The notes beneath the pieces are model-generated. The model was not told the DNA's origin. It did not search any database and saw only the letters and a program-made list of their open reading frames with translations. Position numbers and translations under genes: made by a program. Positions 23,798-27,251 of a stretch of DNA of 64,000 nt are shown piece by piece (the first letter of the stretch is position 1; the number at the start of each line of letters is the position of its first letter). The DNA lies in assembly GCF_054482595.1 (NCBI RefSeq), contig NZ_CM137008.1. The stretch is one strand, 5' to 3'.

Positions 23798-24469
23798 ATG
23801 ATGCAGTTACTTCACTTATTTATGGATGAAATCACTATGGATCCTTTGCACGCCGTTTACCTGACCGTAGGACTGTTCGTGATTACTTTTTTTAATCCGG
23901 GAGCCAATCTCTTTGTGGTAGTACAAACCAGCCTGGCTTCCGGTCGACGCGCAGGAGTGCTGACCGGGCTGGGCGTGGCGCTGGGCGATGCATTTTATTC
24001 CGGGTTGGGTTTGTTTGGTCTTGCAACGCTAATTACGCAGTGTGAGGAGATTTTTTCGCTTATCAGAATCGTCGGCGGCGCTTATCTCTTATGGTTTGCG
24101 TGGTGCAGCATGCGCCGCCAGTCAACACCGCAAATGAGCACACTACAACAACCGATTAACGCCCCCTGGTATGTCTTTTTTCGCCGTGGATTAATTACCG
24201 ATCTCTCTAACCCTCAAACCGTTTTATTTTTTATTAGTATTTTCTCAGTAACATTAAATGCCGAAACACCAACATGGGCACGTTTAATGGCCTGGGCGGG
24301 GATTGTGCTCGCATCAATTATCTGGCGAGTTTTTCTTAGTCAGGCGTTTTCTTTGCCCGCTGTACGTCGTGCTTATGGGCGTATGCAACGCGTTGCCAGT
24401 CGGGTTATTGGTGCAATTATTGGTGTATTCGCGCTACGCCTGATTTACGAAGGGGTGACGCAGCGGTGA
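23798..24469 (+). CDS. yahN: LysE/RhtB-family amino-acid exporter YahN
   Basis: 223-aa polytopic membrane protein. Confidence 0.8.
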   Translation: MMQLLHLFMDEITMDPLHAVYLTVGLFVITFFNPGANLFVVVQTSLASGRRAGVLTGLGVALGDAFYSGLGLFGLATLITQCEEIFSLIRIVGGAYLLWFAWCSMRRQSTPQMSTLQQPINAPWYVFFRRGLITDLSNPQTVLFFISIFSVTLNAETPTWARLMAWAGIVLASIIWRVFLSQAFSLPAVRRAYGRMQRVASRVIGAIIGVFALRLIYEGVTQR

Positions 24470-24594
24470 GCAGATAATTTACTCTCTACGTAATCAACCT
24501 GATTTGCCGAATCCCGACCATCGGCGATGATAGCCCCCGTAATGCGTGGTCCTTATTTCCGATAAGTTTACTTGAGTCTTTAGCTTCCCATTTC

Positions 24595-24624
24595 AGCCCA
24601 CTCTCCCCTGTGTGGGCTTTTTTC
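24595..24624 (+). terminator. Intrinsic terminator downstream of yahN
   Basis: agcccac-tctcccctg-tgtgggct stem-loop followed by TTTTT. Confidence 0.6.
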
Positions 24625-25143
24625 ATTGGTCTGACCCGTCCTGAATAGCCAAACAATGGCAATGTTCCACTTTGCAGGGATGATAATAAGGGGATCTGAT
24701 TCAGAAGAGTTTTGAAAAGTTGGACCGCCATCGAGGCCTCGAACCCCGTACCATACAACAATCCTGGTTGTCGTCTGCTCTTCCTGATGAGCTAATGGCG
24801 GTTTTTGATATGAGCCTTACAGCATATTTTCTGTCAGGCTTGAGTGCGATGCGTAAGATACAGAAAAGACCCCACACAAACATGATGGAATTATGATTTT
24901 TTTCATATGAATGTCAACCCACACATTCACAAAACATCTGCATGAGATCATTTTTTATACACCACATAGCTGCAAAACCACTGCTGGTGCTTTTTTAAGC
25001 GAAGCGTCGCCGATCACAACAAAATATCGGCGAAAAAGGCGGTGGAATGCCATTTGGCATACGGATATACAGATGAAATGATTACCTGCATTGCGATTCA
25101 CTCTCTGGTGGAATAACAACTTGCAGGTGGAACCCTTTCTGAA

Positions 25144-25959
25144 CTAAAGAGTGTAGCGGATTTTAACGTGCTTATTTACAGGATAATATCTGTCACCTAA
25201 TTCCTGCACTCTATTAGATATCCATTCATTTAATCGTGCATCATCTCTGTATGTTTTTACGTCCAGAACAGAGAGCAATAACATCACCAGTGATTCAGGA
25301 AAAACAGGGTAGATATTTTTTAAGTGTAATAATAATCCATGCGCAAGCGCCTGCTTAATGGGCGCGTCTGTCTCCGGAATAGACGACATTTCGCGAAGCC
25401 ATTTTTCCACATGCATACACTCTTTCCCTTTAGGGAAAAGTCTCAGCAAAGGCATATGGTGTTCAAGAAGAATACATTTGCAATCTGTTCGCACTGAATT
25501 GATAAACTGCACTAATTTCTTAAGCCCGGTAAAGCGTCCAGCCTGCACATTTGCTTTAATATCAAGAAACGCATCATCCTAGTCATATACCCAAACTGTC
25601 CCTTTTTGATTTTCAAGTATGCGAAAAACAAACTTAACCGGGTGATCAGGGTAATCCATCCAGTCATAAAATCCAGGGAAATCATTAAACTGCACATTTA
25701 TGGTGAGTGCGTTATCGTCTGACCACTCACAGTCTCGTACGGCAGCCATGAGATGAATGAGTTTGTCGTCATCGACTAAATCATCACGACAATCATAAGG
25801 ATAATCATAATATTGTTTAATCAAAACCTTGAATATATCGACACAGGAAACCAGGGAGCTTTTGATATCCTCTGGTAACTGATTGTTTTTAACCGTATTA
25901 AGTATGCTTTGTTGCGTATATGGCATCAAATTATTGTGCGGAGCTTTTAATGATATCAT
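25144..25959 (-). pseudogene. yahL: yahL-like gene interrupted by an in-frame TAG (two in-frame ORFs of 126 and 134 codons)
   Basis: ORFs 25579..25959 and 25144..25548 are in the same frame, separated by a TAG at 25579-25581 and 10 codons; combined length about 270 aa equals intact YahL. Confidence 0.55.
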
Positions 25960-26201
25960 CGCGATCTCTCTTAAATAAAAATAAACGTCGCAGATAATAA
26001 AGCTCTGATTAAACCAGGCACTATCAGAAATCGCTCATAACTAACGTGTGAAGTATTAGGTACTGGAGGGAGTTAATTTAACAATTTGAATTTACGTTAT
26101 AGGTTTTACTGCTACTTTGATATTATTTCGCTCTCCTTAACTAAAAAGTTAAGTGGAGAGCGAAGTTAATATGTTAAACCACAGCGTATTTATTAATTTT
26201 T

Positions 26202-27251
26202 TCAGTCTGTTAGTGTGCGATTATCGATAACAAAACGATATTTCACATCACCACGCAGCATTCGCTCATAGGCTTCATTAATTTGATCGGCCCGAATCAT
26301 CTCTATATCAGCCACGATGCCATGTTCGGCGCAAAAATCGAGCATCTCCTGAGTTTCTGGAATGCCGCCAATCATAGAACCGGCTATCGCACGGCGTTTC
26401 ATGATCAGGTTGAAAACTTCCGGCGATTTATGCGGTGTCGCAGGCGCACCAACCAGCGTCATGGTGCCATCACGCTTCAGCAAGGTGGTAAAATCGTCGA
26501 GATTATGTGGCGCAGCTACTGTATTCAAAATGAAATCGAAACTCTTCAGATGAGCCGCCATCTCATCGGCATTGCGTGAGTTAACAACTTCATCGGCCCC
26601 CAGGGCTTTTGCCGCTTCGCGTTTTGCCTCAGAAGTGGTAAATGCCACCACATGTGCCCCCATCGCGTGGGCCAGCTTAATCCCCATATGTCCCAGACCG
26701 CCGATGCCGACCACGCCCACTTTTTTACCCGGTCCGGCCTGCCAGTGGCGCAACGGGGAGTAAGTAGTGATCCCCGCGCACAGTAATGGGGCTACCGCTG
26801 CCAGCTGCTCTTGCGGGTGACGAATACGCAGAACATATCGCTCATGAACGACGATCTGTTGTGAGTAGCCGCCCAGCGTATGGCCCGGTTCGTCCGGCGT
26901 CGGCGAGTTATAGGTGCCGGTCATGTGATCACAGTAGTTTTCCAGCCCGTCTTCACACTCTTCGCAATGTTTACAACTGTCGACAATGCAGCCGACACCG
27001 ACCAGATCGCCCGGCGCATATTTTTTTACCTGATCACCAACGGCTACCACACGCCCCACAATTTCATGACCCGGCACGCAGGGATAAACCGTCCCCGCCC
27101 ACTCGGAACGGACCTGGTGGAGATCGGAATGGCAGACGCCACAGTAAGCGATTTCGATTTTGACATCATTCGGTCCCGGTTCACGCCGTGTGATATCCAT
27201 CGGTTCAAGTGGTTGTTTAGCGGAATATGCACCAACAGCTTTGATCTTCAT
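26202..27251 (-). CDS. yahK: Zn-dependent NADPH aldehyde reductase / alcohol dehydrogenase YahK (349 aa)
   Basis: MDR/CAD-family motifs GVCHSDLH, GHEIVG, GIGGLGH. Confidence 0.9.
   Translation of the reverse strand: MKIKAVGAYSAKQPLEPMDITRREPGPNDVKIEIAYCGVCHSDLHQVRSEWAGTVYPCVPGHEIVGRVVAVGDQVKKYAPGDLVGVGCIVDSCKHCEECEDGLENYCDHMTGTYNSPTPDEPGHTLGGYSQQIVVHERYVLRIRHPQEQLAAVAPLLCAGITTYSPLRHWQAGPGKKVGVVGIGGLGHMGIKLAHAMGAHVVAFTTSEAKREAAKALGADEVVNSRNADEMAAHLKSFDFILNTVAAPHNLDDFTTLLKRDGTMTLVGAPATPHKSPEVFNLIMKRRAIAGSMIGGIPETQEMLDFCAEHGIVADIEMIRADQINEAYERMLRGDVKYRFVIDNRTLTD

Follow-up and report, generated by a model that had tools for sequence, protein, structure and literature searches.

An amber codon at a Dcm site in Escherichia coli yahL, probably from recurrent 5-methylcytosine deamination

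In a 64,000-nucleotide stretch of Escherichia coli DNA (contig NZ_CM137008.1 of assembly GCF_054482595.1; referred to here as the window), two minus-strand open reading frames, 25579..25959 and 25144..25548, lie side by side with a stop codon between them, which raises the question of whether they are the parts of one gene and, if so, whether the stop is an error in the data, is read through in the cell, or has inactivated the gene. The initial annotation, made from the sequence alone, proposed a yahL-like gene of about 270 amino acids split by a single in-frame TAG. Both the list of open reading frames and the translation bear this arrangement out: the two start codons are 411 nt, or 137 codons, apart (25959-25548), and translation of 25144-25959 from the ATG at 25959 to the TAG at 25146-25144 gives a frame of 816 nt and 272 codons, including the terminal TAG, in which the TAG at 25581-25579 (codon 127) is the lone internal stop. 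The features of the locus are as follows.

25144..25959, minus strand: yahL pseudogene, 816 nt, 271 codons plus stop, broken at codon 127; 100% identical to yahL of strain XH990
25579..25581, minus strand: premature TAG (amber); the intact alleles aligned with it have CAG (Gln127)
25581: mutated base, C>T on the coding strand and G>A on the plus strand; CDS nt 379
25578..25582, no strand assigned: former Dcm site, CCAGG in intact alleles and CTAGG in the window (CDS nt 378-382), with the mutation at the inner C, the base that Dcm methylates
25582..25959, minus strand: residual N-terminal reading frame from the translation, 126 aa, with an ATG start and ending at the amber TAG; the sole part of yahL expected to be translated
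25144..25548, minus strand: C-terminal remnant from the list of open reading frames, 134 aa, with a GTG start
26202..27251, minus strand: yahK, NADPH-dependent aldehyde reductase, intact, upstream of yahL and given for context
24731..24486, minus strand: yahM, which begins 413 nt downstream of yahL
23798-24469, plus strand: yahN, a neighbour in the window

The interrupted gene and its intact form

Window positions 25000-26200 match loci annotated as 'yahL: protein YahL', with at least 80% of the query covered in 3,999 of 5,426 complete E. coli genomes, and the yahL-annotated loci of approximately 4,000 genomes are 98-100% identical to the window over 1,201 nt. The gene order yahK-yahL-yahM-yahN-yahO is conserved at the window locus. 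The identification as yahL with a product of about 270 aa when the two frames are joined is upheld, as PGAP calls a CDS of 271 aa (816 nt) in strains with intact yahL, and 271 aa is also the published length of YahL (PMC11057252). Intact homologues are thus about twice the length of either fragment, rather than the approximately 130 aa that would have spoken against a split gene; a distant homologue described below has 275 aa. Alignment with intact alleles is gap-free over all 816 nt, and the only disabling difference is the replacement of CAG (Gln127) by TAG through a C>T change at CDS nt 379, so that the amber codon stands in place of a sense codon. The codon in its ancestral state is an ordinary CAG, present in about 4,000 genomes, and divergent yahL alleles encode either Q or K at position 127.

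YahL has few recognizable relatives. Searches against Pfam gave sub-threshold matches only, those against NCBIfam, PADLOC and PHROGs gave none, and a sequence search of the PDB returned no relative with a solved structure; an AlphaFold2 model built on a shallow alignment had a pLDDT of 46 and was not usable. A word-indexed protein search recovered E. coli and Shigella proteins and fragments only, and YahL is described as confined to these organisms (PMC11057252). An exhaustive HMMER search of 1.84 billion representatives found a single full-length distant relative (P0055) and otherwise fragments; this protein of 275 aa is 24-26% identical to YahL (E 4e-11) and is collinear with it across residue 127. 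Its gene (locus L019, 6001-6828; GCA_009799345.1, contig WTUQ01000002.1) lies near a DUF2686 (YjfZ-like) gene and also near a gene for an invasin/intimin-like protein of 1,350 aa. Mentions of YahL in the literature are confined to lists, and none offers a phenotype.

The G+C content of yahL is 38.8% (25144-25959) versus 53.3% for the adjacent yahK (26202-27251), which suggests that yahL is a horizontally acquired or orphan gene. The dN/dS ratio is 0.19 relative to the divergent intact allele of strain MFDS1022581, which indicates that yahL is a real protein-coding gene under long-term purifying selection. It is nevertheless dispensable, since about 1,150 of the 5,426 complete genomes (about a fifth) have the flanking regions only, and protein and contig searches show that other truncated forms of YahL circulate. 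Where yahL is missing, as in APEC IMT5155 (L016, 2500-3120), yahK and yahM are separated by a gap of 621 nt; yahN is also a frameshifted pseudogene in that strain.

Occurrence and consequences of the amber allele

The yahL sequence of the window is 100% identical to that of XH990, in which RefSeq/PGAP marks the gene (BW242_RS20125) as a pseudogene with an 'internal stop', and the window matches XH990, O157:H16 Santai, 88COLEC, SM107 and W619 at 100% identity over a 25-kb stretch; six further genomes are nearly identical over the same 25 kb. We searched for the amber allele with a 55-mer centred on the mutant T, using megablast with a 28-base exact word so that CAG alleles cannot seed a match. 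The probe matched 25 of the 5,426 complete genomes, all at 100% identity. These carriers come from different laboratories, hosts and countries and were sequenced independently, and yahL carries the RefSeq 'internal stop' flag in all seven of those inspected. The exact 126-aa N-terminal product is found on 800 public contigs (NCBI, ENA and Logan assemblies), and is far commoner than any other truncated YahL among the forms listed.

The interrupted frame is a deterministic feature of the sequence, for which chance does not come into question. Because identical sequence is present in independent complete genomes, we conclude that the amber allele is real. The proposal that the TAG is a sequencing or assembly error in an intact yahL is refuted by the 25 complete genomes and the 800 contigs; it is further countered by the five carriers that match the window perfectly across 25 kb, and by the nature of the change, which is a substitution and not a homopolymer indel, and its probability is negligible. 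An inactivating nonsense mutation that makes yahL a pseudogene, the leading one of the explanations first offered, is supported and agrees with the RefSeq flag on an identical genome. The same explanation called the lesion strain-specific, which does not hold: 14 complete genomes share the haplotype of the window, and three other haplotypes bring the total to 25. A better description of the lesion is 'lineage-shared and recurrent, at a Dcm hotspot'.

Full-length YahL could still be made if a suppressor tRNA or programmed recoding allowed read-through of the amber codon. The downstream frame is open and free of further lesions, as this would predict, but a young pseudogene would look alike. E. 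coli is not known to have a pyrrolysine system or programmed UAG read-through, and the ancestral codon is a plain CAG in about 4,000 genomes. Moreover, the check for suppressor tRNAs in XH990 covered the two genes for tRNA-Gln(CUG), glnV and glnX, both of which retain the wild-type CTG anticodon, leaving the initial suggestion of read-through unsupported. The supE (CTA) allele, searched for with the same 55-mer method and serving as a positive control for it, was found in K-12 laboratory derivatives only and in no amber carrier, among the 60 genomes listed of 158. We regard read-through as extremely unlikely.

The C-terminal 134-aa reading frame is also probably not expressed on its own, judging from its start region. 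Beyond the stop, an in-frame start codon is first met ten codons further on, as the GTG at 25548, and no Shine-Dalgarno-like sequence precedes it (the upstream sequence is TTTCTTGATATTAAAGCAAAT-GTG), which makes its expression unlikely. Around yahL we found no terminator-like sites, and promoter-like sites are not enriched. A strong sigma-70-like promoter match (TTGACA-16-CATAAT, 11/12) is located at 24917..24890 on the minus strand, approximately 160 nt upstream of yahM, and suggests that transcription of yahM is independent of yahL; any polar effect of the yahL stop on yahM is probably small.

The surroundings of yahL vary among strains. Insertion sequences are present near yahL or yahN in three TAG carriers (TUM18780, L006 3170-5055; DETEC-C31, L009 3071-4299; and FORC_042, L005 from 4559), with IS3-family elements directly 3' of yahL in two of them and IS1 beside yahN in the third, and the spacer between yahL and yahM looks like a target for IS elements. 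Where yahM would be expected in O55:H7 CB9615, the annotation has a 210-nt 'hypothetical protein' (L010, 2710-2919), compared with 246 nt for yahM, and in MFDS1022581 yahM is annotated as frameshifted.

Origin of the amber codon

In intact alleles codon 127 lies in the context GAC CAG GAT, where CCAGG forms a Dcm site whose inner C is the mutated base. Dcm methylates the inner C of CCWGG, and Vsr repairs the T:G mismatch in CTWGG/CCWGG (PMC2715241, whose reference list includes earlier work on Dcm hotspots by Lieb 1991). In natural E. coli the inner C of CCWGG changes to T about 8-fold faster than other Cs, according to Cherry 2018 as cited in PMC9520237. There are 24 transition-to-stop opportunities in yahL in all, and three Dcm sites; the site at nt 378-382 is the only one of the three that yields a stop upon deamination. 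XH990 has both dcm (1,419 nt) and vsr (471 nt), annotated as intact, and 5,358 of the 5,426 genomes contain the pair. The window and XH990 match perfectly across 25 kb, and from the intact genes of XH990 we infer that Dcm is active in the window strain.

These observations lead us to propose, with considerable confidence, that the yahL of the window is a young pseudogene that arose by one C>T change, converting CAG (Gln127) to TAG, through recurrent deamination of 5-methylcytosine at a Dcm site and escape from Vsr repair. Codon 127 in particular would have been hit because the mutated base is the C that Dcm targets. Dcm would methylate the inner C of CCAGG at this codon, and spontaneous deamination of the 5-methylcytosine would give thymine and leave a T:G mismatch; if very-short-patch repair by Vsr missed the mismatch before replication, the site would turn into CTAGG and the codon into an amber. 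Translation would then end after 126 residues with loss of the C-terminal 144, and the truncated product is presumably non-functional. A hotspot in a dispensable gene would allow the same change to have arisen, or to have spread, on at least four haplotype backgrounds. We looked for additional derived changes in the window yahL besides the stop and found none, and this lack of further decay is the reason for considering the pseudogene young.

The counterpart of this mutation, deamination on the opposite strand, gives the synonymous change CAG>CAA at nt 381, which we found in one strain only (O17_K12a; L018, 248-1063). A pure hotspot model predicts similar rates on the two strands and fits the rarity of CAA less well, although the comparison of four amber backgrounds with one CAA background is not statistically informative. 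Two further observations concern Dcm sites in yahL. Alleles of one amber haplotype (C, below) have a C>T change at the inner C of another site, at nt 106 (CCTGG>CTTGG, synonymous at Leu36; L005 and L008), which is shared by many of their intact relatives. The divergent allele of MFDS1022581 (L017, 1742-2557; about 90% nucleotide identity) has codon 126 as GAT in place of GAC and therefore lacks the Dcm site, making the hotspot mutation impossible there.

The 25 carriers fall into four yahK-yahL haplotypes.

Haplotype A, 14 genomes: the window, XH990, Santai, TUM18780, DETEC-C31 and others
Haplotype B, 8 genomes: O121:H19/O121 STEC
Haplotype C, 2 genomes: FORC_042 and JNE132847
Haplotype D, 1 genome: A17

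For each haplotype we reverted the T to C and searched for an intact parent, using the 1,058 nt of intergenic and yahL sequence as query. For haplotype B the exact intact parent allele is that of O103 ML775, from which it differs solely at nt 379 over 2,108 nt spanning yahK, the intergenic region and yahL. At least 15 genomes carry the exact intact parent allele of haplotype C, and at least 15 that of haplotype D. The revertant search found no exact intact parent for haplotype A; the closest intact alleles are those of O55:H7 CB9615 and OkiPb01695, and each is separated from the revertant by a single private SNP, from which it follows that the window allele is the inferred ancestor plus a single C>T. 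The same C>T is thus present on four haplotypes, three of which have exact intact parents differing only at the mutated base.

This distribution could also reflect one origin, with short-tract homologous recombination subsequently carrying the TAG allele to the remaining haplotypes. Recurrence is favoured by the four-gamete test, which site 379 fails with every one of the 14 other informative sites, a count that is inflated because the sample of haplotypes was built around the carriers. A further 12 pairs of sites that do not involve site 379 are also incompatible, so recombination does occur at this locus; there is, in addition, a mosaic block in yahK at nt 453-519, and the nearest flanking markers leave room for conversion tracts of about 210-550 bp. 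However, spread by recombination would need the allele to be imported three times from donors that make up approximately 0.5% of genomes, and each tract must fit between flanking markers 71-140 nt away, since apart from the stop haplotypes B, C and D match common intact alleles exactly over 1,058-2,108 nt. The base is also a documented hypermutable position. Given the rarity of the donor allele and the confinement of the tracts between close flanking markers, recurrent mutation at the hotspot is more likely than spread by recombination, which we consider possible but doubtful.

A different explanation for the abundance of the amber is positive selection for losing yahL, as might act in O121:H19 STEC and in the lineage of the window, so that the allele owes its frequency to an advantage and not to hypermutability alone. 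The amber, on four backgrounds and in 25 genomes, is indeed commoner than its synonymous sister CAA in one strain, about a fifth of genomes are without yahL, and other truncated forms exist. These numbers are nonetheless tiny, yahL is intact in about 4,000 genomes and has no known phenotype, and the dN/dS of 0.19 between divergent intact alleles reflects long-term purifying selection; we think selection for loss unlikely. A related and quite improbable idea is that the amber reflects more than passive decay and that the Dcm site on an in-frame CAG makes yahL mutationally 'pre-loaded', such that it is repeatedly switched off and its loss is favoured in some lineages, among them O121:H19 STEC and the clone of the window; if true, this would explain why the amber outnumbers the synonymous sister at the same site. 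Recurrent deamination at the Dcm site accordingly remains our preferred account of the amber codon, with methylation and deamination as its presumed cause.

Significance and relation to known systems

Neither the pseudogene call nor the mutational mechanism is new, and the yahL stop reveals neither an unfamiliar mechanism nor the function of YahL. It matters little, and offers a clean natural illustration, from wild E. coli, of the textbook amber hotspot at Dcm sites. It has some practical use as a cheap lineage marker, being common to all eight O121:H19/O121 complete genomes among the 25 carriers. It also counsels caution in the use of YahL as a universal E. coli "signature protein", in that approximately one fifth of complete genomes are without the gene and approximately 0.6% of the rest have the stop. 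A published yahL qPCR assay targets DNA 3' of the stop and would therefore be unaffected by it.

The RefSeq/PGAP annotations of 'yahL, internal stop' (for example BW242_RS20125 in XH990 and I3S_RS01715 in O121 RM8352) describe the same identical 816-nt frame, the same stop and the same call, and differ from the present account in giving neither cause nor population context. Intact yahL of K-12 resembles that of the window in being 98-99% identical at the DNA level and in having the same neighbours, yahK and yahM, whereas the window allele has Q127* together with R113, H167, N154 and L174, all four of which are found in intact alleles too.

The closest parallel is with the 5-methylcytosine deamination hotspots at Dcm (CCWGG) sites, the classic case reportedly being the lacI amber hotspots at CCAGG with CAG in frame described by Coulondre and Miller in 1978. 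The yahL change differs from these in that its origin by methylation and deamination is inferred and not measured, and in that the gene hit is no reporter but an orphan on the chromosome of wild isolates. It shares with them the CCAGG motif, the change of the inner C to T, and the conversion of an in-frame CAG glutamine codon to amber; as with them, the same change is seen on more than one independent background, and XH990 retains both dcm and vsr intact.
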